This document shows, piece by piece, positions 2,799 through 57,979 of a DNA stretch of 64,000 bases. The stretch lies in contig CAXHJY010001349.1 of NCBI GenBank assembly GCA_964016885.1, positions 1-64,000 on the forward strand, read 5' to 3'. The notes beneath the pieces are model-generated. The model was not told the origin of the DNA and searched no databases. It worked only from the letters and a program-made list of their open reading frames with translations. Source of the stretch: Eledone cirrhosa (taxonomy: Eukaryota). The position numbers and the translations under genes are program-made. How positions within the stretch are numbered: position 1 is the first letter of the stretch; each line of letters begins with the position of its first letter.

Positions 2799-2827
2799 AT
2801 ATATATATATATATAGGAACAAGTAAG

Positions 2828-2921
2828 ACCCCGACGGCTGAGCTCAAACCGTTTCGACGGCTAATTCTGTACTGAATGAAAATTTATTCAGGTATTTAAA
2901 TAGCCGAACTTATCAAGGGGT
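2828..2921 (-). ncRNA. Hammerhead ribozyme, U3:A8 core variant (mirror of 4305-4398)
   Basis: Reverse-complement copy of the 4305-4398 motif with a few substitutions in stem III. Confidence 0.75.
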
Positions 2922-4304
2922 AATTCCATATATGGTCAAAGAGATAATCACCAGGATTTGTCACATCACAAGTTAGTAGTAAATCTGTGATGGCAAGTTG
3001 GTGGGGGGAGGGGTAGCTAAACCTGCCGGTAGGAGAAAAAGGGTGAGGCGTGGGATAGACCCATTCATGCGTTGGACTTACTTCGCCCACAAACCCATAA
3101 TGACCCGGGGGGGGGGGGGGGGTAGACTAGGGCTATAACATCCCACTTGCCTATTTTGTAAGCGGTAACCCCTGCTTGCCAATGGAGACGTAAGATCTTC
3201 TTTTACATTCTTTATCGCTTCCTCTATATTTCCTCCTTCCCCCATCCCTCCCTAGTCCTTCTACCCCAGTTCCCTTTCTTTGTCGTCGTCTTTTTCTCGC
3301 CCACCCGAGGTAGCCCATCGGTCCCTGGTAGCTTCAGCACCCCCACCCCTCCCCTATTCTATGATAGATTTGGCTGACTCCGCTTTTTATAGCAGAGGTG
3401 TTAGACTTCGGATACTCGCCCCTTCTCCGACCGCTGTCCCTTTTTTCCGTGCCTTCTATATTTCTTAGTGGCATCTTTGCTTCAATTTCTCGTTTATCCA
3501 GTATTTCTTTCTTCTTTTTCCCTTTTTTTTTGTGGGGGGGGGGGGGGGGGGTGTTCCTGTATTAATTTTCCGTTCTTTACTTTTACTTCGTACGATCGTT
3601 CATGTAGATTGTATAAGACTTTTCGTTTCGTGGCGGTACCCTTAGAGTAAGCACTAGTATTTTTTTGCGGGACGCTGAATTACATTCTCGTACTAGTTTA
3701 CTTTCTGGCACTGGGTGGTAGAAACCTTTATTATTTTCGTCTTAGTCTCTTTAGTATTCTGCCCCCCCCCCCCTTGTTGACCCGTCACCGTACGATACAC
3801 GCACTTATACCTCGTATAAGTTCCCTTTATTTCCGTCCCACCTAGTTTTTTTCTATTATTATTATTTATTATTTTTTTATTCTACATTATATATATATAT
3901 TTTTTTAAAATTTATTTATCTATTCTTTTATTCACTTATTTGTTTATTTATTTATTTATGTATTTCTTTAGACTAGCAATAGCGAGAGACTTAAGTCTTA
4001 GTAACCAGATTTTGCTTATTTTTTATTTTTTTCTCTCTCAGTACCTTTTATAGTTTTACCTTTCATTGTTCTACTTGCCGTTTCGACCTCCTCCCCCCCC
4101 CCCTCCCCAGTATCCTCTTTGACCCTACACTCAGCTGTAGCTGGCACTACCAACGCATGAATGGGTCTACTCAACCCCCTCTCCCTTTTTCTCCTACCGG
4201 CAGGTTTAGCTACCCCTTCCCCCACCAACTTGCCATCACAGATTTACTACTAACTTGTGATGTGACCAATCCTGGTGATTATCTCTTTGACCATATATGG
4301 AATT

Positions 4305-4398
4305 ACCCCTTGATAAGTTCGGCTATTTAAATACCAGAATAATTTTTCATTCAGTACAGAATTAGCCGTCGAAACGGCTTGAGCTCAGCCGTCGGGGT
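4305..4398 (+). ncRNA. Hammerhead ribozyme, U3:A8 core variant
   Basis: acccc-TTGATAA-gttcggcta...tagccgtc-GAAA-cggct(tgagctc)agccg-TC-ggggt; stems I, II and III pair; GUC cleavage triplet. Confidence 0.85.
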
Positions 4399-4497
4399 CT
4401 TACTTGTTCCTATTACCCACTCTACTACGCTAAGTATTGAGTACTTTGGTGCGTTATGGTCCACCTGGTTCCTTACCACATTTTCTTCGTTATATAC

Positions 4498-8703: not shown

Positions 8704-10935
8704 ATCCTAAAATAATTAATTTATCTAAAAGAGATCTTGACAATGATGAAATGCAAATTCTGTCAAAAGGACTGAAATTCACACCGACTCCAACAGTCAA
8801 CCACCAAGAACTGAAGGAGGATACCCAAGAATTCTGTCGAAAATTACGTCTTGTAGAATTCTTCGCTGATAAAAGTAATGAGAGTGATGAATCACTAGTA
8901 AAGAATAAATCAAATTTCACTCCGCCAAAAGGAAGAAATATCTATCTCGACCAATATATTGACATCCTGTCTAAATTTCCTCTTAGACATAATACTAATG
9001 TTAGGCCAAACATTAACAAATCAGAAATGTCTGCACTTAAACGTATACAAAATGATAAAACAATAATAATTAAACAAGAAGATAAAGGGGTGCAGTTGTT
9101 ATAATGGATACTGAATACTACAAGGATTTGGTTGAGGAACAACTGAAAGACACAACATTCTATCATGAAATACCGTCAAATATAGACCACAACATCATGA
9201 AAAAGATCAACAACCTGGCTTCAAAATACCACAACTCATTTACTGATAAGGAAAGAGACTACATCACCAATTTTGAGCCGAAACCCAGCAACCTGTATGC
9301 CTACCGAAAGTTCACAAGTCAAAAGAAATACAACTGGCAGTAAGAGAACAAAACAGTGAGTACATTAAATTATTACACCCAAAAGACTTAAAACTTAGAC
9401 CTATTATAGCTTGTCCAACATGCCCCACTCACCGTCTAAGCAATTTTGTTGACATTATTTTGAAACCACTATGTATTCACATACCCAGTTTCATCCGGGA
9501 TGATATCGACTTCCTGTCCCATCTTCCCAAAACCACGGAAACGAATTCACTTCTACTCAGTTTTGATGTGGTAAGCCTTTACACCAACATTACACATGAT
9601 TTAGGAATAAAGGCGGTTAAATACTGGGTGGAAAAATATAGAGAAGTGATTCCCATTAGATTCACAGCGCCATTTATATTAGACGCAGTTAAACTTATTC
9701 TGGAAAACAACACTTTCTTCTTCAATGGAAAGAATTACATCCAAATTAGAGGCACAGCGATAGGAACGAAGTTTGCTCCCGTTTACGCGAACTCTGTAAT
9801 GGGATACTTAGAACAACAACTCTACCAAGAAATAGAGGAAAAATATAGTACTGACTTTAGAAAGTACATTGAAAAATCTTGGAAGAGATACCTTGACGAC
9901 TGTTTCATCATCTGGACAGAATCTCTAGATACTCTGGATGAGTTCAATATCCTCCTGAATAACCTACACCCATCTCTCCAATTCACAAAAGAGATGAGTA
10001 GGACCAAATTACCATTCCTAGATATAATGGTAATCAAAAACGACACCACCATTACCACGGATATATATTATAAACACACAGACACCCATCAATATCTGAA
10101 TTTTAAGTCGTGCCATCCACCTCATACAAAACGCAACATCCCATACTGCCTAGCCAGAAGAATTTGTACCATTGTAGAAGATACGAATACCAGGTACAAA
10201 CGCCTAACAGAACTAAGAGAATTTTTGCTCAAACAAAAATACCCATCTCTACTTATAGAAAATGGCATACCGCGGGCTATAAAAATACCTATACAACAAC
10301 TTAGAACAACCCAAGGAAGAAGAAACCAAGAACTGGTCATACCATTTATAATGACACACAACCCATGTCACCAGAATATCTTCAACACTGCCAAAGCAAA
10401 CCTACCGATCATTGCTCAAAGTAATGAATTAAAAGGCTTAATCACAGATCGATCTTTGACTCTTAGTAAAAGACAGCCAAAAAATTTGAAGCAATTGCTA
10501 ACAAAAGCAAAGTTTGACCTTAACAACAAAGACCAATCATTCACTGTATCTAAATGCAATGATAATCGATGCGGCACATGTCAATCCATACACGCCGGTC
10601 AATATATGAAAACAAAAACTGGAAAAATATTCCCAAATGCAAATATGAACTGCAAAAGCAGAAATCTAATTTGCTGCATTAAATGCCCGAATTGTGAAGA
10701 ACTATATGTCGGTCAAACTGGAAATGCACTATCGGAACGTGCACGGGTACACCGTCAACAAATCAGAGACCCAAATGTCCGTCAGATACCCCTAAGCGGC
10801 CACCTGGCAACATGTGGTCAGGGAATATTTATAATATTCCCATTCTACAAATTACACAGCCCAAGTGAAATCAAGAGAAAAATCAAAGAAAAGAATTTTA
10901 TTGATAAATTCAAACCCAAGCTAAATGAACAATAA
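8631..10935 (+). pseudogene. PLE reverse transcriptase plus GIY-YIG endonuclease, with two 1-nt frameshifts (~9090, ~9300)
   Basis: DKG[G]AVVIMD and LY[G]LPKVHK motifs are broken by single-base deletions; downstream 491-aa ORF has YLDD and YVGQT. Confidence 0.9.
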
Positions 10936-11639: not shown

Positions 11640-11732
<93 letters not shown>

Positions 11733-11993
11733 TATTAGGTATAGGATTATCCAAGATGTAGTGATGGTTAATTACTACACTGGATATGGTTGACGTACGG
11801 TAAGAGGTTACTCTACGAGTTATGGAAGAATTGTTCAAGAAACTTAGTTCCTGATCCTTCAGTGTTCCGGAGTGTATATAAAGAATGAATCATATCCAGT
11901 GTAGTAATTAACCATCACTACATCTTGGATAATCCTATACCTAATAATTGCCTCCTACACAGTTGAGAAACCACACTGACACACGGCATTAAT

Positions 11994-14324
11994 ATGGAAA
12001 GGCATCATATAGGTATGTCACTTAAAAACATACCTATACCTAACAAAAGGGAATATATTCTCAGTATGATTCAACGCAGTAACGACTTCATTCGGCGTGT
12101 ACGATGGAAAGCTTTCCACTTCGATAAAGGACGCACCAGTCACTCGTCTGAATCATATGGTTTTAAATCATGTAAAAACCCACCTACAAACCCTCACCTC
12201 GAAGCTTTCGAACAGGACTTATTGAAAACTACCATGAACATTAAGTTCAACAGACATAGAAATAATGAGCTGCAGAACAACATGAAAGCACTACTCCGAA
12301 GATTGCAAAATACCAATGGTATTGTTGTGAAAGCTGACAAGACTTCGAACGTGTATACCATGGATATCGATACGTATAATAACTTCATACGCAACGAACT
12401 ACACAAAAAATATAGAAAAACAAATGAAACTACGCTAGCAAATATTAACAACGAGGCATATAAAGTGGTAAAGAATCTCAAGTTAGACGATAGAACCGAG
12501 CCGATTATACCCGCTACCCCCACCTTCAACCTGAAGGACCATAAGGTAAATTTTGACTCTAACCCTAAGATTAGACTTATATGCCCTTCTAAATCAGACA
12601 TAGGGAAAATTAGTAAACATATACTTGACAGAGTAATAACTCAAGTGAAAAAGAAAATTGAAATTAAATTATGGGGCAACACTAGCGAAGCAATTCGCTG
12701 GTTTAATAATGTTAAGAATAAGAATAAATCTAAGTTTATACAATTTGACATAGACGAATACTACTCTTCCATCTCACCAAGCACTTTACGTAAGGCCCTA
12801 TCGTTTGCTAAGGCCAATTCCGACCTAACAGAGGACGAAATCAATATTATTCTCGAGGCTAGAAAAACCATTATTAAGTTCGATAACTGCTACTGGGAAC
12901 GTAAGGACAGACCCACAAATTTCGATATTACCATGGGTTCCAACGACTCGGCGGAGGTCACGGATCTCGTTGGAATTTACATAGCCCACATATTACATAG
13001 TAGATTTAATAATCTACAGGGGGGGGGGATATACAGAGATGACGGGCTCTTATTAGTTAATAACTTGAATAACCAAAATCTTGAAAGGCTACGGAAAAAT
13101 ATTAGAAAATCTTTTAGTGAACTGGGTCTAAAAATAACATACGAATACAATCTTAAGGTAGTAAACTTTCTGGACGTAACTCTTAATTTAAATACCGGAC
13201 AGATACGACCCTTCCACAAGGTAAATGAGAACCTTACGTATATTGACTTTAACTCTAACCACCCACTCTCCATGATCAAATCAGTTCCCCGGAGTATTTC
13301 TCTTAGAATCTCTCGCCTATCGTCTAACTCTGATATATTTAGCGAACATGCTGAATACTACAATAATGCATTAAGGAATGCTGACCACCGGGATACAATA
13401 GAATACATCGATAGTAATTTCCACAACACACATAGCTCTACACGTAATCAAGGTATACGTAACCGGGGGACTAAAACACAAGCACACACACACTGTACTA
13501 CCAGACATACTAATAATAGAAGATCACCACCAAATAAATCACGTTGTAGAAAGTATATCTGGTATAATCCCATTTTTAATGCCTCGATTAGTACAAAATT
13601 ATCTCTTTCATTCTTTAAATTAATTAATAAACACTTCCCTAGTTCCCATAAGTACAGCAAAATTCTGAACTCCAAAACTATTAGACTATCATACTCCACG
13701 GCACCAAACCTTGAAGCATACATAAAAAAACTTAACTTAAGGCAATTAAATAACTCTACAAAACAAAACATTTTAGTAACAGATAGGCAGAACGCAATAT
13801 CTGCCTCCCAACCACTAAATGGGAGACGGGTATTGCACAACCAACCTGTACCGCTATCACAACCTATCCATGGTGTACCCGCTACCCACAACAAAGCATG
13901 TAACTGCCATCTACCTGAAAGATGTCCATTGCAGAATGAATGCCTAAAGTCCAACATTGTTTACCAATGCACGGTTGAATCGGACGACCAGAAATGGTAT
14001 TATATTGGATCTACCACCACATCGTTTAAATCTCGCTGGTACCGTCATCGATTCTCAATCAAACATCAGAATCACCGCTTTGTGACCACGCTCGCCAACA
14101 AGACCTGGCAACTCCGTGAACACAACCAACAGTTCACCTTAAAATGGCATATACTTTCCAGCGCAAATGCATATCGGAGTGGTTTGAAGTACTGCAGGTT
14201 ATGTAACCTTGAGCTATTTTACATACTAAAATCCAAAAACAAACTACTTAACGATAGAATTGAACGATCATTATACTGCAACCACAAACTAAAAGCTAAA
14301 TTCTCTCACTATAAAATAACTTAA
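11994..14324 (+). CDS. PLE RT-GIY-YIG polyprotein, 776 aa, uninterrupted
   Basis: KADKT, QFDIDEYYSSI, GIYRDDGL, VNFLDVTL, CNC..CPL..C, IVYQC..YYIGST, C-terminal CRLC..E. Confidence 0.93.
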   Translation: MERHHIGMSLKNIPIPNKREYILSMIQRSNDFIRRVRWKAFHFDKGRTSHSSESYGFKSCKNPPTNPHLEAFEQDLLKTTMNIKFNRHRNNELQNNMKALLRRLQNTNGIVVKADKTSNVYTMDIDTYNNFIRNELHKKYRKTNETTLANINNEAYKVVKNLKLDDRTEPIIPATPTFNLKDHKVNFDSNPKIRLICPSKSDIGKISKHILDRVITQVKKKIEIKLWGNTSEAIRWFNNVKNKNKSKFIQFDIDEYYSSISPSTLRKALSFAKANSDLTEDEINIILEARKTIIKFDNCYWERKDRPTNFDITMGSNDSAEVTDLVGIYIAHILHSRFNNLQGGGIYRDDGLLLVNNLNNQNLERLRKNIRKSFSELGLKITYEYNLKVVNFLDVTLNLNTGQIRPFHKVNENLTYIDFNSNHPLSMIKSVPRSISLRISRLSSNSDIFSEHAEYYNNALRNADHRDTIEYIDSNFHNTHSSTRNQGIRNRGTKTQAHTHCTTRHTNNRRSPPNKSRCRKYIWYNPIFNASISTKLSLSFFKLINKHFPSSHKYSKILNSKTIRLSYSTAPNLEAYIKKLNLRQLNNSTKQNILVTDRQNAISASQPLNGRRVLHNQPVPLSQPIHGVPATHNKACNCHLPERCPLQNECLKSNIVYQCTVESDDQKWYYIGSTTTSFKSRWYRHRFSIKHQNHRFVTTLANKTWQLREHNQQFTLKWHILSSANAYRSGLKYCRLCNLELFYILKSKNKLLNDRIERSLYCNHKLKAKFSHYKIT

Positions 14325-16397: not shown

Positions 16398-17130
16398 TTT
16401 TTCCTAAATCTTACGTTAACTACTCTTCGCATCTTGACGTTATATTCGCATATATGTTATAGAATGCTGTTAGCTTCTCGCTAAAACAATCTCTATACCT
16501 CTCATTTATATTTATACTCGGATTCTTTTCCTAGAGTGCTTAAACTATCTGTGACTAATCCCGGTTTTTCTCATAAAAACTGTGATAATTATTGCTATTT
16601 TTGCTGAACTCCTTTTGTAGAGTTTTTTTCAGAATGTATTTGACTGCTATTTCTTGTAAATAAACATTCACTTACATCCTGACGTCACTAGCCCCGTTTT
16701 TCCCCATGTGCTTTTTCATAACTACACATGATGGCGAACTAGCCAGTTTTAGAATTCCCTCTTTCGGATTATAATACTGTGAGAGCCCTGGTTTTCTGTT
16801 GAGCTCTGCTGATGAATGAAATCCAACCGTGACCATCTCTATTTCATGAAATAGTCTTTTAAGACTATACAGAGCATTTGATGTTATTCCAAATTGAAGG
16901 ATAAGTGTTTTAAACTTTATTTTATCATGAGTTAAACGTCTATTGATTTTTCCCTGGATTGCACTAAATTCTGTGGATGAATTTGTATCCTGATTCTCTT
17001 TTGAGATGAGTTTGAATTATTTTTCCTAAATCTTACGTTAACTACTTTTCCCATCTTGACGTTATATTCGCATATATGTTATAGAATGCTGTTAGCTTCT
17101 CGCTAAAACAATCTCTATACCTCTCATTTA
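16398..17130 (+). mobile_element. Non-coding retrozyme-like element: 622-bp unit plus ~110-bp direct terminal repeat, one HHR
   Basis: 16398-16508 is repeated at 17020-17130; no ORF; flanked by TA. Confidence 0.8.
16803..16875 (+). ncRNA. Hammerhead ribozyme, canonical core, stable stem III
   Basis: gctctg-CTGATGA-atgaaat...atttcat-GAAA-tagtct(ttta)agacta-TA-cagagc; all three stems are perfect. Confidence 0.92.
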
Positions 17131-17377: not shown

Positions 17378-17589
17378 AAAGAATGAATAATAACAGGTAG
17401 ACATTATATGCATTTATATACACTCCTGAATAGACATTATATGCATTTATATACACTCCGGAATACTGAAGGATCAGGAACTAAGTTTCTTCAACAATTC
17501 TTCCATAACTCGTAGAGTAACCTCTTACCGTACGTCAACCATATCCAGTGTAGTAATTAACCATTACTACATCTTGGATAATCCTATAC

Positions 17590-20797: not shown

Positions 20798-22290
20798 TCG
20801 TTTCTGAATTTGTTTAGCAAGATTCTTTATCTGAAATCGTGTGTTGAAACCGATATTGTTATACTTTGGGAGGGTCATGTTGACAATAAGAAACACACGC
20901 ACCAGTTCCTTTCACTTCAATTTATTATATATTTATAAATTTATAAATTTACAAATCTACAAACTTATAAATTTCTGGTTGGTTGGTTGGTTCCACAACC
21001 AGATAGTTGTTTATATATAGTCATAGTCCTTTTGTCACACACTCTGTGACCTCTTCAGTGACTGGGGATTCCTTTCTTTGTTTCTGTGCCTTTCCTTTCT
21101 TCTGTCCTACGCCATTTTGTTTCTGTGTGTGTGTTGTGTGCTCAGTTTGCGCATGCACCACATTCGGGTGTCTGTGTGTGTTTGTGTTCATTTATCTATT
21201 TGTTTATTTATTTACATGTTGTTGGTTGGTTGTTTGTTCTATGTGTGTGTGTGTTTTCATTTTGTCCTTAATTGTAAGTTGTGATGTTGCTGTTCAACTC
21301 ATATTTTCTATTTAATTTTGGTTGTAATTCTTTTATGCTTACTGCCTCTGTAATTTGCCTAAACATTGCATCTTTTCTGTGTGTGGATTCTATTTTTATT
21401 TCTATGTTCTCTAATTTACCCTTGTGTTCTATCTTAGCATATTGGTAGAGTACAGATGATTCTTTATTATCTTGAAGGTCTCGCCAGTGTTCATTTATTC
21501 GTTCCCCTATACTACGAGCTGTCTCACCTATGTACACTATATTTTTGTTTCTACATTGTCCTTCAGTACATCTTATGCTATACACTACATTTCTAGTTTT
21601 ACAGTTAATATGGGGGCTTATTTTACAGGTTATACATTTCTTATCTATACATGAGAGTTTTTCTTCCAGCTCGCGGTTGGCGGGCGGTGGATAGAGTGGG
21701 CGATATAATTGGTATATCGGGAATCTGGGTGTGGTGGATTCCGTGGTGTTGTTGTCGTGAGTCGATATCCATTTCAGTTGGTAGGCAGCCCGACAGAAAT
21801 TCGTTTCTATGTCGAGCCATAGTCTGTCGTCCAGTCTCTGTTTCAATATGAACTTGGGACCCAGGCTGAGGAGGTCTAATTCCTCTCGGGAGAGGGATCC
21901 TGTGACTCTGTGACGAGGTGTTTTGCGTCAGGTGTGTTGTTGGTCGGGGTGCCGCTAGGTTCGGTGTTGGTAACGTGTTGGTAACGTAAAGTTTTGTGAA
22001 GTCGCAGACGAAAGAGAGAGAGAGAGAGAGAAAAAAATTTCCATACCAGCTTTGTCAAGACCGCGCGAGAAAAGAATTACACACAGGTCAAACTTGAAGG
22101 ATGAGGAGGAAAGAGGAGGAGGAGAGGTAGTGACAGGAATGAGTGAGAGAAAGTTGAGGAGGAGGCTAACAGAGAGAGAGACTGCTAGAAAGGGTAAAAC
22201 CGAACAGACGAGTGGCAGCAGAAGAAAAATTATGTGTAAATATGATAATAATAGGCTGCCCGTTGCAAATGGTGGGGCATATGAAAAAGT
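20798..22290 (-). mobile_element. Internally deleted Penelope-like element lacking RT
   Basis: N-terminal motif LSREELDLLSLGPKF is in frame with the GIY-YIG domain; 3' UTR shared with 430-1028; HHR at 21019-21063 has GAAA mutated to AAAA. Confidence 0.85.
21268..21900 (-). pseudogene. PLE N-terminal region fused in frame to GIY-YIG endonuclease (no AUG start seen)
   Basis: CITC..NCKTRNVVYSIRC..VYIGETARSIGERINEH..RQITEAVSI..PKLN. Confidence 0.8.
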
Positions 22291-33312: not shown

Positions 33313-33397
33313 AATATATATATAAATATATATATATATATACAATATTAAATAACAATATTAAATAAATGGAAAACTATATTTATAAAACCATATT

Positions 33398-33463
33398 TAT
33401 TTCATTATATATATTTCGGGGATATCATATTAACAATATGCTATGCCTTCATCAGACAAAATA
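33398..33463 (-). ncRNA. Hammerhead ribozyme (left arm of palindrome)
   Basis: Mirror of 35825-35890. Confidence 0.75.
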
Positions 33464-33826
33464 CAATATAAACAGTTTTATAGATAAATATATTCGACAT
33501 ACCGTAATAAACATCAACTTCATTTGAAGAGGTTTAGTCTAGCAGTGAAAATACAGAGAGAAAGAAAGAGAGAAAGAAAAGAGGGAAAAAACGAAAGAAA
33601 GAAAGACAAAACGAAGAAAAGGAAGAAAAAGAAGAAAAAGAAAAAGAAGAAATGCATGGAACAAAATAGAGAGATGGAAAAATAGATAAAGTGAAGAGCT
33701 TCATGTAAAGAGACAGAAAGATATATATATATATAGAGAGAGAGGAAATAGAGATAGATACATATATATATATATAGAAAATTAGGTAGTGGGAGGTCAT
33801 TTTGAGTAAGTGTATCAATGATACAT

Positions 33827-33861
<35 letters not shown>

Positions 33862-34685
33862 GCTCAAGTATTAATGTAAGGGAGATATATAGAGAGATAT
33901 AGAGAGATATAGAGAGAGAAAAAAATTTAAAAATATCCAGACATATTCGAGGCGTAGAAAACCCTATGTTTTAATGTATTAGTATTTATAAAACTTACAC
34001 TACACTGTAAATATCAGTATTCCTGAATGAAACAAGTATTCACAATGTGTGAAAATTGATTATCTTATGTTTAGTTTTAAAAATTCATATGTCTATGTGA
34101 CAGCTACAAATCTCAATGTGAATCCAACTGATTCACTCCGCAAACTCTAAGTTATCGGAAAACATTCTCAATGTGGTATAAAAATTTGAGCGTATTATTA
34201 TTCTTGCGATTACTCTACAAGATTATCTATCAAGCAGAAATAGAGAGCAGATTTCAATATACTAATCGAAAATATATATTATATTATAAACATAATAATA
34301 AGTAAAAATATAGAATAGAAAACTAAAAAAATATTACGAAAGAATATTACATAATAAAAATATTGCATATTAAAAATACTACGTATTAAAAAATATTACG
34401 TATTAAAGATTTACATATAAAAATTTACATATAAAAATATACATATAAAAATTTACATATAAAAATTTACATATAAAAATATATAAAAATATTAAAAAAA
34501 AAAAAAATAAATAAATAAAATAAAAATAAAAATATTATAGAATACTACAATACTAAAAGAGTAAAAGTAAAAATAAAAATAAAAATAAAAATAAAAATAA
34601 AAATAAAAATAAAAATAAAAATAAAAATAAAAATGAAAATAAAAATAAACCACAAAAAAAAAAAAAATTTTTATTTTTATTTTTA

Positions 34686-34716
<31 letters not shown>

Positions 34717-35418
34717 TTTACTTTTATTCTTTTAGTATTGTAGTATTCTATAATATTTTTATTTTTATTTTATTTATTTTTTTTTAAATATTTTTATATA
34801 TTTTTATATGTAAATTTTTATATGTAAATTTTTATATGTATATTTTTATATGTAAATTTTTATATGTAAATCTTTAATACGTAATATTTTTTAATACGTA
34901 GTATTTTTAATATGCAATATTTTTATTATGTAATATTCTTTCGTAATATTTTTTTAGTTTTCTATTCTATATTTTTACTTATTATTATGTTTATAATATA
35001 ATATATATTTTCGATTAGTATATTGAAATCTGCTCTCTATTTCTGCTTGATAGATAATCTTGTAGAGTAATCGCAATAATAATAATACGCTCAAATTTTT
35101 ATACCACATTGAGAATGTTTTCCGATAACTTAGAGTTTGCGGAGTGAATCAGTTGGATTCACATTGAGATTTGTAGCTGTCACATAGACATATGAATTTT
35201 AAAAACTAAACATAAGATAATCAATTTTCACACATTGTGAATACTTGTTTCATTCAGGAATACTGATATTTACAGTGTAGTGTAAGTTTTATAAATACTA
35301 ATACATTAAAACATAGGGTTTTCTACGCCTCGAATATGTCTGGATATTTTTAAATTTTTTTCTCTCTCTATATCTCTCTATATCTTTCTATATATCTCCC
35401 TTACATTAATACTTGAGC

Positions 35419-35453
<35 letters not shown>

Positions 35454-35824
35454 ATGTATCATTGATACACTTACTCAAAATGACCTCCCACTACCTAATT
35501 TTCTATATATATATATATGTATCTATCTCTATTTCCTCTCTCTCTCTATATATATATATATATCTTTCTGTCTCTTTACATGAAGCTCTTCACTTTATCT
35601 ATTTTTCCATCTCTCTATTTTGTTCCATGCATTTCTTCTTTTTCTTTTTCTTCTTTTTCTTCCTTTTCTTCGTTTTGTCTTTCTTTCTTTCTTTCGTTTT
35701 TTCCCTCTTTTCTTTCTCTCTTTCTTTCTCTCTGTATTTTCACTGCTAGACTAAACCTCTTCAAATGAAGTTGATGTTTATTACGGTATGTCGAATATAT
35801 TTATCTATAAAACTGTTTATATTG

Positions 35825-35890
35825 TATTTTGTCTGATGAAGGCATAGCATATTGTTAATATGATATCACCGAAATATATATAATGAAATA
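35825..35890 (+). ncRNA. Hammerhead ribozyme (right arm of palindrome)
   Basis: tattttgt-CTGATGA-agg..catatt(gtt)aatatg..cc-GAAA-tatata-TA-atgaaata. Confidence 0.78.
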
Positions 35891-36054
35891 AATAGGTTTT
35901 ATAAATATAGTTTTCCATTTATTTAATATTATTTAATATTGTAAATATACTCCAAATATTTGTCGAGTGCTTTTATATCAGTTATAAATATTTACTAGTT
36001 GTAACCCAACAATTTTAAATATAACTTTACATATATATATATAAATATATATAC

Positions 36055-37667: not shown

Positions 37668-37980
37668 GTATTAGTTATACTATTTATGGTTATGTAAATA
37701 CAAAACCTTAAGCAGTTGTAAGTATTTTACACACACCCTAAATAGTGGTAGGCAGTAATGTATTACTACCTTATTACCAGTAAGTTAAGTAGCTCAATGT
37801 AAAGACATCAGATGATTTACAGAGCAGTTATATGAAATATAAGAATCAAAGAACTGTTCAAAACATTATTGTGCTTACAGCTGTTTCCTCCAAACCTCGG
37901 TTTGGAGGAAACAGCTGTAAGCACAATAATGTTTTGAACTGTTCTTTGATTCTTATATTTCATATATTTCATATTTCATA
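37668..37980 (-). mobile_element. PLE 3' end with ~67-bp-arm foldback (37829-37966) centred on HHR stem II
   Basis: Apex tccaaacc-tc-ggtttgga is identical to stem II of the HHR at 50160-50208; both arms carry GAAA-cagctg-TA-agca. Confidence 0.82.
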
Positions 37981-38225: not shown

Positions 38226-38511
38226 ACATATATATATACATATATATATATACATATAAACTAACCACGGAGTTTGAGGCAATCCATATATATATACATA
38301 TATATATATACATATATATATATACATATATATATATACATATACATATATATATACATATATATATATACATATACATATATATATATATACATATATA
38401 TATATACATATACATATATACATATATATATATACATATATATACATATATATATATACATATATATATATACATATATATACATATATATATATATATA
38501 CATATATATAC

Positions 38512-38542
<31 letters not shown>

Positions 38543-38624
38543 CATATATATACATATATATATACATATATATATACATATATATATACATATATATATA
38601 CATATATATATACATATATACATA

Positions 38625-38955
38625 CGTGGGAAAGTGAAAATTCGGAGAATAGACCGTTAAAACATGTTTATTTAAAATAACACCTACGTACGTTTCGCCC
38701 AGTTGGGCTTCTCAACTGGGCGAAACGTACGTAGGTGATATTTTAAATAAACATGTTTTAACGGTCTATTATCCGGTTTTTCACTTTCCCACGTGCTTAC
38801 GCTCTGCTAACTCTCTAGCCCACTAAATATTAACACTTCGAATATTTAATACTGCCGGCACTAGTATCGAGCAGCTTTGGCATACGCTACTTGGCAAATA
38901 ACTATATGTATCACCTATCCCTCCTTTTTCTCTCTTTCTCGATACGTAAATACTA
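38625..38955 (+). mobile_element. PLE 3' end with ~80-bp-arm foldback (38625-38794) whose junction lies in the HHR core/stem II
   Basis: Minus arm: TTGAGAA-gccca(ac)tgggc-GAAA-cgtacg-TA-ggtg; plus arm restarts at caactgggcGAAA. Confidence 0.8.
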
Positions 38956-39375: not shown

Positions 39376-39513
39376 CATATAAACTAACCACGGAGCTTGA
39401 GGCAATCCATATATATATACATATATATATATACATATATATATATCATATATATATATACATACACATATATATATACATATACATATATATATATACA
39501 TATATACATATAC

Positions 39514-42419: not shown

Positions 42420-44172
42420 CCATTAATATCCTCGTGATATTTAATGTTTTTCACCGTGAAACTGTACAGTTAGGGCCATTTGAATAGGTAAATATTTATA
42501 TTATATTTTTTAATTTTGATTAATTTTAATTGTATATTAATTTTGATTTATTTTGAAAAATTGGTTGAATTTTACTTGTTCTGCTTATCGATATTAAGTT
42601 CTGGTATATCAAATTATTACCATAGAACCACCTTAAATCATAGACACACTATATATTTCCGGGGGTACATTGTACCCTCAGATATATATTAACCTTATTC
42701 AATAATCTCCAGTATGTAGAGATACAAATTTGTCGTTCTATTTAGTTACTAAAAATCTTTTTTTTTAGTGGCGATTATAGACGGCGAGTCTACGATTTCC
42801 CCCCTTCACTATACACCAATGTATTTACGGGTCACTTTCACGACCTTTTAGACCTGTATTAGTTGGTGTGAGGTCATATATTTTGTCGTTTCTGGGGTTT
42901 TTAACCCTAGGACAGGAAAATGCTTCTCTGATGATCGTTGCTTTTCCATTAATATCCTCGTGATATTTAATGTTTTGCACCGTGAAACTGTACAGTTAGG
43001 GCCATTTGAATAGGTAAATATTTATATTATATTTTTTAATTTTGATTAATTTTAATTGTATATTAATTTTGATTTATTTTGAAAAATTGGTTGAATTTTA
43101 CTTGTTCTGCTTATCTCGAAATTAAGTTCTGGTATATCAAATTATTACCATAGAACCACCTTAAATCATAGACACACTATATATTTCCGGGGGTACATTG
43201 TACCCTCAGATATATATTAACCTTATTCAATAATCTCCAGTATGTAGAGATACAAATTTGTCGTTCTATTTAGTTACTAAAAATCTTTTTTTTTAGTGGC
43301 GATTATAGACGGCGAGTCTACGATTTCCCCCCTTCACTATACACCAATGTATTTACGGGTCACTTTCACGACCTTTTAGACCTGTATTAGTTGGTGTGAG
43401 GTCATATATTTTGTCGTTTCTGGGGTTTTTAACCCTAGGACAGGAAAATGCTTCTCTGATGATCGTTGCTTTTCCATTAATATCCTCGTGATATTTAATG
43501 TTTTGCACCGTGAAACTGTACAGTTAGGGCCATTTGAATAGGTAAATATTTATATTATATTTTTTAATTTTGATTAATTTTAATTGTATATTAATTTTGA
43601 TTTATTTTGAAAAATTGGTTGAATTTTACTTGTTCTGCTTATCTCGAAATTAAGTTCTGGTATATCAAATTATTACCATAGAACCACCTTAAATCATAGA
43701 CACACTATATATTTCCGGGGGTACATTGTACCCTCAGATATATATTAACCTTATTCAATAATCTCCAGTATGTAGAGATACAAATTTGTCGTTCTATTTA
43801 GTTACTAAAAATCTTTTTTTTTAGTGGCGATTATAGACGGCGAGTCTACGATTTCCCCCCTTCACTATACACCAATGTATTTACGGGTCACTTTCACGAC
43901 CTTTTAGACCTGTATTAGTTGGAGTGAGGTCATATATTTTGTCGTTCCTGGGGTTTTTAACCCTAGGACAGGAAAATGCTTCTCTGATGATCGTTGCTTT
44001 TCCATTAATATCCTCGTGATATTTAATGTTTTGCACCGTGAAACTGTACAGTTAGGGCCATTTGAATAGGTAAATATTTATATTATATTTTTTAAATTTG
44101 ATTAATTTTAATTGTATATTAATTTTGATTTATTTTGAAAAATTGGTTGAATTTTACTTGTTCTGCTTATCT

Positions 44173-47936: not shown

Positions 47937-49868
<1,932 letters not shown>

Positions 49869-50009: not shown

Positions 50010-50250
50010 ATTTTTATTTTTATCCTGTAACCTTTATATGTAAATTGCCATGCTATATCATTTGATGAATGTCACCCCACTGTTGATCAATATGCGCATA
50101 TGTTTTATATGTCTCTTGGGTTGAAAAGGAGGTCAAGTATGTTATAGATCAGTAAATAGTTGCTCCGAAGAATCCAAACCTCGGTTTGGAGGAAACAATT
50201 GTAAGCAAATAAATGACTTAAACTGAACTTTGATTATTGTAATCTCTATA
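50010..50250 (+). mobile_element. PLE 3' end fragment with HHR (50160-50208; U4C core)
   Basis: ttgct-CCGAAGA-a-tccaaacc(tc)ggtttgga-g-GAAA-caattg-TA-agcaa-ataaa. Confidence 0.78.
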
Positions 50251-50263
50251 CATATATATATAC

Positions 50264-53789: not shown

Positions 53790-54330
53790 ACTTACTACTT
53801 TTCAACCCCGCAAAGCTCAACTTTGTATTTCACCCTTCCGAGGTTGATAAATTAAAGTACCAGTAAAATGCTGGAGTCGATCAACTTTCCTCTTCCCTCA
53901 AATTCTGGCCTTTTGTCTAAATTAGAAACCATTATATTTGTGGATTGGCAGTATCGGTAGAGGGTCGGACGCCATGCTTTGATGCATAGAGTTACGGCCC
54001 TTGCCATTCTGAGTTCAAATCCCGCCGAGGTTAACTTTGCCTTTCATCCTTACGGATTCGATAAAATAAAGTACCAGTAATGCACTGGGTAATTGCTGGT
54101 CTTGTGCCAAACCTAGAAACAATTATATTTGTCGGTCTTCGAAATCTGTAGTTTGGCAGAGTCATAATACATAGAATGAAATGCACTGTAGTTTCCACTG
54201 TATTTTCCATGTTCAATCCCGCCGATGTTAACTTTGCCTTTTAACCTCCTGAGTTCGATGAAATAAAGAATCAAAGAAGCATTGGGGTCGGTTTAAATTG
54301 TTGAGCTTGTGCCTAAATTTGAATTCATTT
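53790..54330 (+). mobile_element. Cluster of about three tRNA-derived SINE copies (best copy 53940-54120)
   Basis: A-box-like TGGCAGTATCGG, B-box GAGTTCAAATCCC, conserved body ctttgcctttcatcct..gataaaataaagtaccagt resembling cephalopod Nin/Deu-type SINEs. Confidence 0.75.
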
Positions 54331-55799
54331 TATTTGTCAATTTAGTTCTAGCCTCGTCTTGTATTCAAGAAAAGAGGAAATATATATTTGTGCGTATGCA
54401 TGTATATACATTATAACGTTTTCTTTTTTATTGGACAGTGAAACAAAACTTTTAGTTTTATAGTAGAAGAGGGCGATTGATTGAAGATTAATTTACTTAT
54501 TTATTCGATCTAGCCTGTAGATGCTAAGATAGTATAGAGGATAATTCTAAATTAATACTAACCTTTTCTTACACATATATTCTGTTAAATTTCCAGGGAC
54601 TAACCAAAGGCATCTGCTCTTTGTTATCCTACCACTCGATCTCTCACAATTCCAGTACACTATGTTTCATAGATTTTAATCTCTCTTCGTATTGTAAAAT
54701 TCGCAACTCCTCCCTATAATTCTCATATATCTCGATTACGTTTCCGTGAAAATTTTCAGTATGTCTATCATCTTTTTGGTGAAAGAATATTTTCTAGGAG
54801 ACTCATTAATACTTTCTCCCATTCAGTATATGGAATTGAAAGTTTCATATTTTCCGAATTATGTTTAATAAAAAATATTTTGAAAAAAATACGTATATTG
54901 TGGCCTTTGGTGTTATTTGATAATTTCGGATAATCATCTTATTGAAACTTTCCACCGTAAAGTTATTTCTTAATTCTACTCAAACGAAAACGTATCTATT
55001 CTATCTATTAATTCTAGTGTCTAGTAGCTATGTTCTGTTGTGTTATGTAACCGTTCTCATTCGTCACTTCCACAAAAATGATTATTGTTTTTATCAGACT
55101 CAAGGCTAATTTTATGTAAGCGAGGTTATTATTGCATTGAATCAACGAAAGTATATTACAGTTCTTTAATTTATTTTTCTAGCAGAGATAAAAGGTAAAT
55201 ATATTTTAGTTTGAATTCATACCAGAACAAATAGACAGATGTGACATAGACCTTAATGCTGCTATCACTTAGCTTTAAATAAAAGCCATAATTTATGTGA
55301 TCATTAAAAGTATTTTTTAAAGAAATGTATCTATTTCACTCTTTTACAAATTATTCACTCTTCATTAAAGTTATGTTTTTGTCTAACGTATTAAAACATA
55401 AAATGAGTGAAATAACAAAAAAATAATTCTTTCCTTCAACAGGCGATGCTCGCCCAATGATACAAGGAAATATTCTAAACACCACTTGATAAGTATGCCT
55501 TTGAGTTAACTTTGAAATTTTCTTTAGTTTTCTAGATATCATTCTATTGACATTGTTAGATTGCAGTATGTTGTGATTTTGAAGTATCTGAAAAAAAAGA
55601 CACTTCTGAAAGAAACCTTCACTATCTTAGAAATAATCCCTCATTATGAAAACCGGAAACTATTCTTCATATAACACAAACCACGCTAAAAGAAGGATGT
55701 CCAGAGAGAGTGGAAAACGTTCAATTCATCCTTTGATATGATTATTAGCAGTGCTAGCAAGCACTTTTGAGTGCAAGGCATGCTTTATGAATAATAGGT

Positions 55800-56300
55800 T
55801 GAGGCTAGAAATATGAGTCCTCTAACTCGGTACTGAACTTATAGTGGCTCCTGGGGTGCGTGGCGGCGGAAGGCCCTGAAACCCTCATCGACATCAAGTT
55901 TACAAAGGAGGACAGGTGGTCCGGGAATGGTTTGGAGTTTCTTCGCCAAATCAGACCCGAAGACGTGTACGAAATCCAGGTAGTCATGGAGGGCAAACGG
56001 CCACCACACTACTTCATTTGTGATGACGCCCCACACCTGCGAGTCTTTGCCCCCCCCCCCCCAGCTGAAAATTGCAGGGGGCCACAAACCTCCGTTGCTT
56101 GCTGCCAAGACTGGTGCCGGGACAAAAGACAACACCAGCACCAACAACAGCAACAGTAAAGGAAACAACACCACCTGCAACAACATCAGTAGCAACAACA
56201 CCAACAAGGACTATTAAAACCACCAATGGAGACACCCAAACAGGCTCTCCCTCTTCCTCTTTTTCAAATACATGGACATGCCTCTCCTTGTGGCGGGGGA
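55800..56300 (+). pseudogene. Possible decayed L1/Tx1-type ORF1 fragment with degenerate zinc knuckle
   Basis: IQVVMEGKRPPH(Y)FICDDAPHLRVF(C)P followed by a Thr/Pro-rich tail; two Cys positions are mutated or frameshifted. Confidence 0.4.
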
Positions 56301-56869
56301 CAGGTTACGTTGTTGAGGCGGCCCATTTATGCCAGTACCTTCTACGAAGAGGGATGGGCATGCCGTGGCTAATGATGCACAAACATGTACTGAGGCTGTT
56401 GCCGTGTGTAGAACGGATCCGTCTTTCGGCCGAGTCCATAGTGAAGAACGACCCACCGCCTACTTTTGTCCAGGAAGGGCAGGTAATTTTCCTCTGCCAG
56501 GTGGCGGTAGTGAAAGAGGTTGTCTGGTGGACCAGGTTGAAAGGATTGATGACAGACACTTCTCTCTTCGGCCAATTCCTCATCAATTTTTTAAAAGTTT
56601 AACTTGGAAAGGAAGGCGAGGGCGGTGAGAGAAGTGCTGCTCCCAGTAAATTTGCTGAAAGATGGGTGAATGTGATGAGAATGACCTGTATGAAAGGGCC
56701 CTGCGCATGCCTCTGAGCATGCGCCTGTAAGCTGGTTAATTTGAGGGGGTGAGGGGAACCCTTACCGGGTGTCCTCGAAGTGTTGGGTGGTCAGGTTTGG
56801 TGGGATACTTGAGTCGCCGCTGGGTGGTTATTCCCCCTATTAGGAAATTTCATTATTGTATTGCCAATA

Positions 56870-57320
56870 GGCGGTGGATTGGCAGTATCGGTAGAGGGTC
56901 GGTAGCCATGCTTTGACGTATAGAGTTACGGCCCTTGCCATTCTGAGTTCAAATCCCGCCTAGGTTAACTTTGCCTTTCAATCTTTACGGGGTCGATAAA
57001 ATAAAGTACCAGTAATGTACTGAATAATTGCTGGCCTTGTGCCAAACGTAGAAACAATTATTGTATTGCCAATAAATAAAACCTTTATTATTATTATTGT
57101 GTTGGATTGGCAGTATCGATATAGTTTCGGACATCATGCTTTTCAGCATAGAGTTACGGCCCTTTACGTTCAAATCCCGCTGAGGTTAATTTGCCTTTCA
57201 TCCTTACGGGGCCGATAAAATAAACCAGTAAGGATGAAAGGCACAGCTAACCTCAGCGGAAATTGAACTCAGACCGCAAAGGGCCGTAACTCTATGCCGC
57301 AAAGCATGGTTACCGACTAT
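56870..57320. mobile_element. SINE cluster of the same family (two plus-strand copies and one inverted partial copy)
   Basis: Same head and body as 53940-54120; 57230-57315 is reverse-complementary. Confidence 0.75.
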
Positions 57321-57979
57321 TAATATAATAATAATAATGAATTTATTTATTGGCCATAAGGGCCGAAAAATATAATAATAATTATTATTATTATTGTTAT
57401 TATTTGGCTCCGGGTGGGGTTTTAACTGCACCATCTTATATATTAACACCGTTATCAGTGTCATGTATTGGCAGAAACTGTTGTACACCGAACGAAAGGT
57501 TTATCTTTTTTGTTTTTCGAAATATTAATTACCAGTTATGTACTGCAGTCAATTATTTTCACTATTCTTTTTCAATGTAAGAAATGTATAAAAAACATCA
57601 TTGGAATTAAATCATGTTTCCATCTTATGAGGATTTTAGCATAAAAATATGTAGTCCAAATTTAGTTATGTCATAATATTTAGATATAAACATATAAATT
57701 TAGATATAATATTTAGACATAAACATATAACATTTTTTAAAAGAATGTTAAATATCAAAATGGGTTAGAAATAGCGTTAACATGATTCCAAATGCCGAAA
57801 ATATGCAGTAGAATATTATTTAGGAAGGAAAGAATTAATACAAATTAGGTTAAAGTACTCAAACAAAGTAAAAAATCAATAGAAAATATGAAACTTTCAC
57901 AGACGTATTGCAGCCATTCAATTGGTCGTATACACACTACCCGTATATAAATATATATGGCATATGAATCAATTTCCAT

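Follow-up and report, generated by a model that had tools for sequence, protein, structure and literature searches.

Two head-to-head ends of a likely Penelope-type element joined at a predicted hammerhead hairpin

Introduction

It has been previously reported that Penelope-type elements (PLEs) carry inverted ends, although both the formation of these ends and the completion of the second strand have been described as undefined (PMC8557442, PMC11167929). Craig et al. (2021) applied the same word to the origin of tandem as well as inverted structures (PMC8557442). Earlier, Arkhipova et al. (2013) had described inverted pLTRs with one-sided tails of 31 bp, an overlap of 15 bp and junction palindromes of 18 and 38 bp, and had proposed self-priming on an antisense template (PMC3846280).

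Here we analyze a 138-base palindrome in a 64-kb window (the whole stretch of 64,000 nucleotides of Eledone cirrhosa DNA under study), together with related insertions within and outside the window. These insertions resemble the inverted pLTRs of endonuclease-containing PLEs in their head-to-head, 5'-truncated copies, their one-arm extension and, outside the window, their target-site duplications, as well as in their simple-repeat targets and in the palindromes or 15-bp overlap found at the inverted junction (PMC3846280, PMC8557442). The palindrome itself differs in the length of its one-arm extension, which is about 155 nt compared to the 30-40 bp described (PMC3846280, PMC8557442). Furthermore, the palindromes of 2013 were not tied to a ribozyme, the word "hammerhead" being absent from that paper, whereas here the palindrome is stem II of a predicted hammerhead; and they were explained by antisense self-priming, whereas our tail and loop statistics favour two cDNAs (PMC3846280).

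Two other bodies of work bear on this locus. The minimal hammerheads of PLEs have a long helix II (7-8 bp) with an unpaired base on its 5' side, a short helix I (4-5 bp) and a small, palindromic helix III (PMC4209133), all of which recur in our motif; the copy at 50165 differs from them in a U4C substitution, and cleavage there is a prediction. Cervera and de la Pena (2014) described opposite-strand hammerhead pairs 100-700 bp apart, but half-ribozymes fused at stem II, as found here, are not reported in the accessible part of the work on these hammerheads (PMC4209133). Frangieh et al. (2024) showed that the PAc protein (Poseidon, Anolis), a predicted dimer, cleaves and extends both strands, that two start sites flank the tail, and that uncleaved RNA is the dominant template (PMC11167929). 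The features of our insertions appear similar: nicking and extension of both strands, two internal start sites, AT-rich targets and an uncleaved template. The in vitro study leaves second-strand synthesis and inverted ends open, as far as its available text goes, whereas we propose the joining of two cDNAs; three of its supplementary files make no mention of inverted or palindromic structures (PMC11167929). Our literature search found no paper that links an inversion junction to stem II or applies twin priming to PLEs, and Arkhipova 2006 and the 2017 Terminon paper, which lay outside the search results, may bear on this. The link of the inversion junction to stem II is what we did not find in print; junction palindromes had been described, and self-priming suggested, in 2013.

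Results

The window is eukaryotic, with 28% GC and 19.6 kb masked as TA-rich. The original prediction, made from the letters of the window, had described a near-perfect hairpin with arms of about 67 bp. This was borne out: the arms (Table 1) align over 68 bp at 98.5% identity, with one mismatch (T opposite T) and a 2-nt spacer, and their fold has a z-score of -25, with 0 of 200 shuffles folding equally well. The palindrome is therefore confirmed as a real observation. Its apex is, as had also been claimed, stem II of the motif at 50160; the window contains two exact occurrences of the 18-nt centre, one at the palindrome and one in that motif (chance mean 0.02). Because the TC loop is oriented as in the intact copy, the right arm is the loop-bearing one, and it runs from the 3' strand of stem II through GAAAC and the stem III loop AGCT to the predicted cleavage site, after which come the 3' strand of stem I and about 50 nt of downstream sequence. 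It is 82.6% identical to the copy at 50173-50241 over 69 nt, and the aligned portion takes in GAAAC, the palindromic loop of stem III (4 nt) and the 3' strand of stem I. The right arm stops at the edge of a TA array. The 50241 copy ends at the corresponding position, as does one contig from the independent sequencing run X15, which has a loose TA end behind 37967; we infer that the end of the arm is the proximal start of reverse transcription. TA arrays lie on both flanks of the insertion, where a target-site duplication would be read, and both arms continue unbroken through the predicted cleavage site. The predicted stem II, common to both arms, is at once an 8-bp microhomology and the apex. 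The palindrome represents two head-to-head ends of a likely Penelope-type element, joined exactly at a predicted hammerhead hairpin.

Table 1. Coordinates of the palindrome and related features in the 64-kb window.
Feature	Position	Strand	Basis
One-sided extension; putative long tail of the inverted, loop-less arm, about 155-160 nt	37668-37828	-	multicopy in run X15
Left arm; inverted copy of the predicted hammerhead 3' half and downstream sequence	37829-37896	-	68 bp, 1 mismatch to right arm
Predicted hammerhead stem II; 8-bp stem with a TC loop oriented as in the intact copy	37889-37906	+	identical to 50173-50190
Right, loop-bearing arm	37899-37966	+	ends like the 50241 copy and one X15 contig
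Second palindrome, another family, same geometry	38624-38944		arms 38624-38705 and 38713-38794
Non-inverted family copy; type I minimal hammerhead-like motif with the same 3' end	50160-50241	+	motif anatomy

The motif at 50160 consists of a 5-bp stem I, the core CCGAAGA, one unpaired A, an 8-bp stem II, GAAA and a stem III with AATT. Helices I, II and III thus surround the core, helix II is long and helix III is palindromic, a property kept in both copies (AATT at 50160, AGCT in the palindrome). In its anatomy this motif is what the original prediction had called an intact hammerhead, but the core at 50165 is CCGAAGA (U4C) and not CUGANGA, and Rfam does not recognize it: the Rfam hammerhead models gave no match at gathering score across the window, none at E ≤ 10 for 50020-50260, and none at E ≤ 10 at 560-800 of L032, a locus outside the window with an intact copy of the outside family described below. 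Therefore, the hammerhead call rests on motif anatomy. Minimal hammerheads were themselves defined by custom descriptors (PMC4209133), and the Rfam miss is for that reason weak evidence against a hammerhead. The free minimum-energy fold of the motif has stem II present and the three-way junction absent. In run X15, two contigs put CTGAAGA-A or CCGAAGA directly 5' of stem II (37889/37888), and because they join stem II to these cores, the apex coincides exactly with stem II and a canonical core is present in the family; the CTGAAGA variant presents the full hammerhead core, CUGANGA ... GAAA ... UH. In the palindrome, the 50241 copy and the outside family alike, some 50 nt separate the predicted hammerhead from the proximal end, which places it close to the 3' end of the terminal repeat. 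Further hammerhead-like motifs, belonging to different families, were seen at 16809 (+), 40764 (-), 683 (-), 11329 (+) and 45112 (-); among them, the motif at 16809 could fold as a monomer, its stem III being long.

A non-LTR retrozyme was rejected as an identity for the locus: the window holds one complete copy and one head-to-head half-pair, with no tandem head-to-tail hammerhead units. A preprint on retrozymes (10.64898/2026.07.22.740005) concerns tandem ones. The window does contain reverse transcriptase and GIY-YIG ORFs: the ORF at 9280-10932 combines a reverse transcriptase (RVT_1, E 1.3e-6) and a GIY-YIG domain (E 2.8e-4), and that at 21271-21924 has a GIY-YIG domain. In a masked self-BLAST, the reverse transcriptase and GIY-YIG ORFs of the window had no sequence in common with the palindrome family, and so the likely PLE membership of this family rests on structure, including the inverted, 5'-truncated copy extended at one end only. 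Four ORFs of the window likewise gave no tblastn match to 112 loci outside the window. A region at 11731-14324 contains an ORF (11970-14321) of 785 aa, without a Pfam match and weakly similar to the 9280 ORF (E 0.003), for which we regard a PLE label as tentative. Ahead of this ORF lies an inverted terminal repeat whose spacer is 96 nt long, and a solo copy (17446-17577) stops at roughly the same base.

The original prediction correctly described the palindrome, but the insertion is larger, as the left arm continues for about 155 nt as multicopy element sequence to a TA array at about 37668 (155 nt is the distance from the left arm to the first TA-rich 14-mer). The extension has a summed depth of 138-975 in run X15, and two X15 records, among the matches listed, begin at 37668. 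One X15 record (record 6; 37792-37856, 1 other letter), with a depth of 105, spans 37829, but its shorter side measures 28 nt, which falls below our bar of 31 nt for a boundary crossing, and X15 loose ends at 37830 and 37833 appear by eye to be variant arm sequence. We read 37668-37828 as the long one-sided tail of the element, on the basis of one run, of unrecorded type, and this 28-nt crossing. Four runs were compared: the family was found in X15 (34 contigs), X20 gave one 36-nt piece, and X16 and X7 gave none; the query included the TA array, which is probably the source of most shares near 0.23. Among the matches listed (9 pieces; 27 further), no X15 contig bridges the apex, which leaves the palindrome locus without confirmation by independent reads and which is neither support nor refutation. 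A contig of the same run that joins 37770 to 37942 (side 26 nt) may be an inversion with non-overlapping arms and was too weak to count.

We surveyed seven local inverted pairs chosen from the masked self-BLAST; dispersed inverted matches many kb apart and a SINE-like fold (by eye) at 57064-57358 (68% identity) were excluded. In all seven, one arm ends at most 18 nt from a TA run and the other is extended by at least 41 nt. The apex falls at a stem-II-type hairpin in two of them, 37829-37966 and 38624-38794, while the other five have spacers of 44, 96, 152, 249 and 1074 nt, and stem II is therefore a preferred, not an obligatory, junction. The second palindrome has 82-bp arms at 95.1% identity, with four arm differences and a 7-nt loop, and its right arm extends by 154 nt, nearly equal to the 155 nt at the first palindrome. 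At its apex is an 8-bp hairpin, followed by one base, GAAAC, a palindromic GTAC and GTA; from this 3' half alone we infer a hammerhead, and we found no intact copy of its family within the window.

Other structures in the window were noted. At 33341-36025 there is a 2.6-kb head-to-head palindrome (pair 33341-35943), 99.5% identical over 1269 aligned bp, whose arms meet in an A/T-rich tract; it has an 83-nt one-sided extension and, by eye, CTGATGA ... GAAA boxes at about 35833-35875, near the arm ends. The inverted pair 2813-3075 / 4150-4413, with its 1074-nt spacer, contains in its arms, by eye, TTGATAA, the U3-A8 variant of the hammerhead core, together with a stem II whose loop is long. At 42425-44164, units of about 528 bp that are about 99% identical to one another form a tandem array. 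Several SINE-like repeats, which presumably resemble a cephalopod SINE, lie at 53800-57400, and the one at 57064-57358 folds back on itself. Near-identical non-TA islands within TA arrays, at 38263-38278 and 39388-39401, match by eye part of a LINE-like region near 48620.

To see the same geometry in other DNA, we scanned contigs for two inverted hammerhead 3' halves 14-36 nt apart; wider junctions are invisible to this pattern, and so no genome-wide stem-II fraction follows from it. At least 112 loci (at least 114 matches) in metagenome contigs fit the generic pattern, compared to 17 matches, none of them palindromic, in viral contigs serving as a chance control; a family-specific 23-nt pattern had 0 matches in the viral contigs. 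One repeat family accounts for 63 matches in 62 loci among the matches listed, and its intact copies (L032, L029) run from CTGAAGA through one base and a 5-bp stem II, whose loop is 9 nt, to GAAAC. The junction is stem II (19 nt) in 25 of the 63 family matches and in 3 of 51 non-family matches, among the matches listed. Four entries were dropped before counting, three because of flanks shared with other loci (L118, L112 and L069 with L042, L060 and L050) and one as an internal duplicate (L124.2). This left stem-II junctions in 23 of 59 cases, where 2.6 are expected (binomial P-value 1.5e-16 against a uniform 1 in 23), among the matches listed; together with the two of seven pairs in the window, this agrees with the predicted enrichment of inversion apices at stem II. 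Under the strictest de-duplication the count is 15-21 of 50 (P-value ≤2e-9) among the matches listed. Both strands of the stem are still visible in 19 of the 23, and the remaining 36 junctions have other lengths, with 18 different lengths among the 59, again among the matches listed. These observations support a stem-II hotspot in at least three families.

The outside loci also show the one-sided tail. Of 56 scorable loci among the matches listed, 43 have a 30-nt tail on a single arm, 0 on both arms and 13 on neither, a further 3 loci being unscorable (score threshold 22; the 99.5th percentile of the null is 18). In the 23 exact stem-II junctions among the matches listed, the tail lies on the loop arm in 10 and on the loop-less arm in 7, the other 6 being ambiguous because the family is old. 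Over thresholds of 19-36 the split between loop and loop-less arms ranges from 10:9 to 8:5 (P-value ≥0.3 against 50:50), and loop-less-arm tails number 5-9 across all thresholds tried, among the matches listed. Target-site duplications with at least 8 matching bases flank 12 of the 43 one-tailed loci, compared to 39 of 1806 mismatched pairs, among the matches listed, and this enrichment identifies the loci as insertion products. Two loci, L042 and L073, have the tail on the loop-less arm and duplications of 10 and 11 matching bases; given these duplications, the untailed loop arms are original ends rather than eroded ones. Arms are 68% identical within a locus and 58% between loci, and share 1.20 and 0.48 rare variants, respectively, among the matches listed. 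This likeness is neutral, fitting a shared template, subfamily structure, later gene conversion or the copying of one arm from the other.

Individual outside loci were of interest in themselves. At L070 (1400-1700) both arms end in the same non-consensus sequence of about 28 nt with no adjacent tail, and this locus looks like a candidate for true self-copying. L083 (1036-1907) and L029 (375-703) contain inversions in the stem-II region with one arm reiterated in tandem (units of about 69 and 30 nt, respectively), each unit restarting inside stem II, that is, repeated template jumps at the same hairpin. Two further families, at L079 (1390-1645) and L056 (1488-1546), have head-to-head hammerhead-like 3' halves at or just 5' of stem II, and L079 has a 12-bp direct repeat in its flanks. 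L035 is a perfect palindrome at a contig end and is probably a foldback or assembly artefact.

Discussion

We propose that two cDNAs, primed at nicks on opposite strands of the target, annealed through the self-complementary stem II and thereby gave rise to the palindrome, a reading to which we assign a probability of roughly 0.57. Both strands of the TA-rich target would be nicked, as would be expected from the behaviour of the PAc protein (Frangieh et al. 2024); one cDNA would begin at the distal site and become the long, tailed arm, and the other would begin at the proximal site and become the short arm. The template was uncleaved RNA, because both arms run unbroken through the predicted cleavage site. 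The cDNAs may stall at or near stem II, so that when one has copied the loop and the 5' strand, its 3' end could pair with the other's copy of the 3' strand; annealing would extend over the stem, 8 bp at the palindrome and 5 bp in the outside family. A flap, if any, would be trimmed and each cDNA extended on the other, which would complete the second strand, place the apex at stem II and leave a tail on one arm and a duplication of the target site. In this role the ribozyme would be a ready-made palindrome and not a catalyst, and at other loci other palindromes or plain end joining may do the same job.

Several observations are consistent with this. The predicted cDNA-cDNA duplex is worth -17.3 kcal/mol, compared to -4.6 for the intramolecular hairpin (no concentration term is included). 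The five window pairs that have spacers of 44-1074 nt and no stem-II apex are as expected from independently truncated cDNAs, and a single tail per locus, on either arm, would fit two start sites used from opposite nicks. The likeness of arms within a locus, which also fits copying, and the locus L070 count against two cDNAs, and the proposed joining at stem II is deduced from insertions already completed. A parallel is the twin priming that Ostertag and Kazazian reportedly proposed in 2001 for LINE-1 5' inversions. Twin priming likewise involves two target-primed cDNAs and a head-to-head joint through microhomology; in LINE-1 the second primer anneals internally and the segments are mostly non-overlapping, whereas here both cDNAs would begin close to the 3' end, at fixed sites, with complete overlap, and a structured palindrome would be their meeting point.

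The original prediction held instead that a single cDNA copied through stem II, folded on its own hairpin and self-primed the second strand; in such a model an endonuclease would then process the ends. Self-priming had been suggested before, in 2013, for junction palindromes (PMC3846280). A single folded cDNA would give the same apex, the cDNA-strand hairpins of the two window palindromes are stable (-4.6 and -6.8 kcal/mol), and arms that are 98.5% identical at the palindrome, rare variants shared more within than between loci, and L070, which looks like a copied arm, are all what self-copying would produce. The difficulty is one of length: a copied arm never exceeds its template, so the loop-less arm could not hold more element sequence than the other, yet at the palindrome it is about 155 nt longer, and in 7 of the 17 outside stem-II junctions that could be scored, among the matches listed, it carries the tail. 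The tail has been ascribed to endonuclease resolution of an intermediate (PMC8557442), which could rescue the model, but a staggered cut of a hairpin would fix the polarity of the tail and not yield 10:7, among the matches listed. Moreover, both arms are tailed in 0 of 56 loci, and the 36 of 59 junctions of other length (both among the matches listed) and the five of seven window pairs with long spacers go unexplained, while a covalently closed hairpin would still have to be opened to leave a target-site duplication. We therefore regard a self-copying cDNA as unlikely at this locus and as largely refuted as the sole route, although it may account for a minority of cases; the original mechanism is probably wrong in this key step. 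The priming could also have taken place on RNA, as suggested for head-to-head structures with junction palindromes in Adineta vaga, where an antisense transcript whose 3' end is folded at the palindrome would prime itself and then integrate (Arkhipova et al. 2013; PMC3846280). The same apex would result, but antisense RNAs ending precisely at stem II would be required, neither arm ends at two fixed sites nor a tail on either arm is predicted, and the PLE protein studied in vitro used sense RNA across the pLTR-ORF junction (PMC11167929); we consider this quite improbable.

The remaining explanations do without recurrent joining during reverse transcription. One or a few palindromic master copies, formed once and amplified as units, would make the junction peak a record of success, and would account for its sharpness at a single length in one family; with 18 junction lengths among 59 (among the matches listed), both combinations of tail and loop, arms closer to their own partner than to other loci, and the same geometry seen again within the window in two further families, and perhaps also at L079, such an origin is very improbable. 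Foldback or a template switch during replication, at a short inverted repeat and after insertion, needs no reverse transcription, and any 8-bp inverted repeat can seed such events. This process would have copied the right flank in inverted form, but the left arm continues into element sequence, and the outside loci show direct target-site duplications at element-defined ends, which makes it more doubtful still. Finally, a library foldback or an assembly error could mimic the locus: no independent contig among the matches listed bridges the apex, and L035 is probably such a case. Against this, the arms are not identical (one mismatch here, four at the second palindrome), their layout is asymmetric, their ends fall at sites defined by the element, and old loci with arms about 68% identical, flanked by duplications, have the same geometry; an artefact is the explanation to which we give least credence.

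The proposed annealing of two cDNAs at stem II bears on PLE integration, on inverted ends and second-strand completion, and on the role of weakly active hammerheads. A junction hotspot at stem II, combined with the asymmetry of tail and loop, provides a sequence-only test between one-cDNA and two-cDNA models in any PLE-rich genome, and an open question of PLE integration becomes directly testable, also with the in vitro system already established. In genome annotation, a palindrome with half a hammerhead at its centre represents a real insertion footprint and not necessarily a foldback artefact. More speculatively, stem II might serve across animal PLEs as a programmed stop for reverse transcription and a pairing site for the two cDNAs of a dimeric protein, thereby solving second-strand synthesis and creating the inverted pLTR. 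If true, this would explain why helix II of PLEs is unusually long despite the poor cleavage of these hammerheads and their dispensability for priming in vitro.
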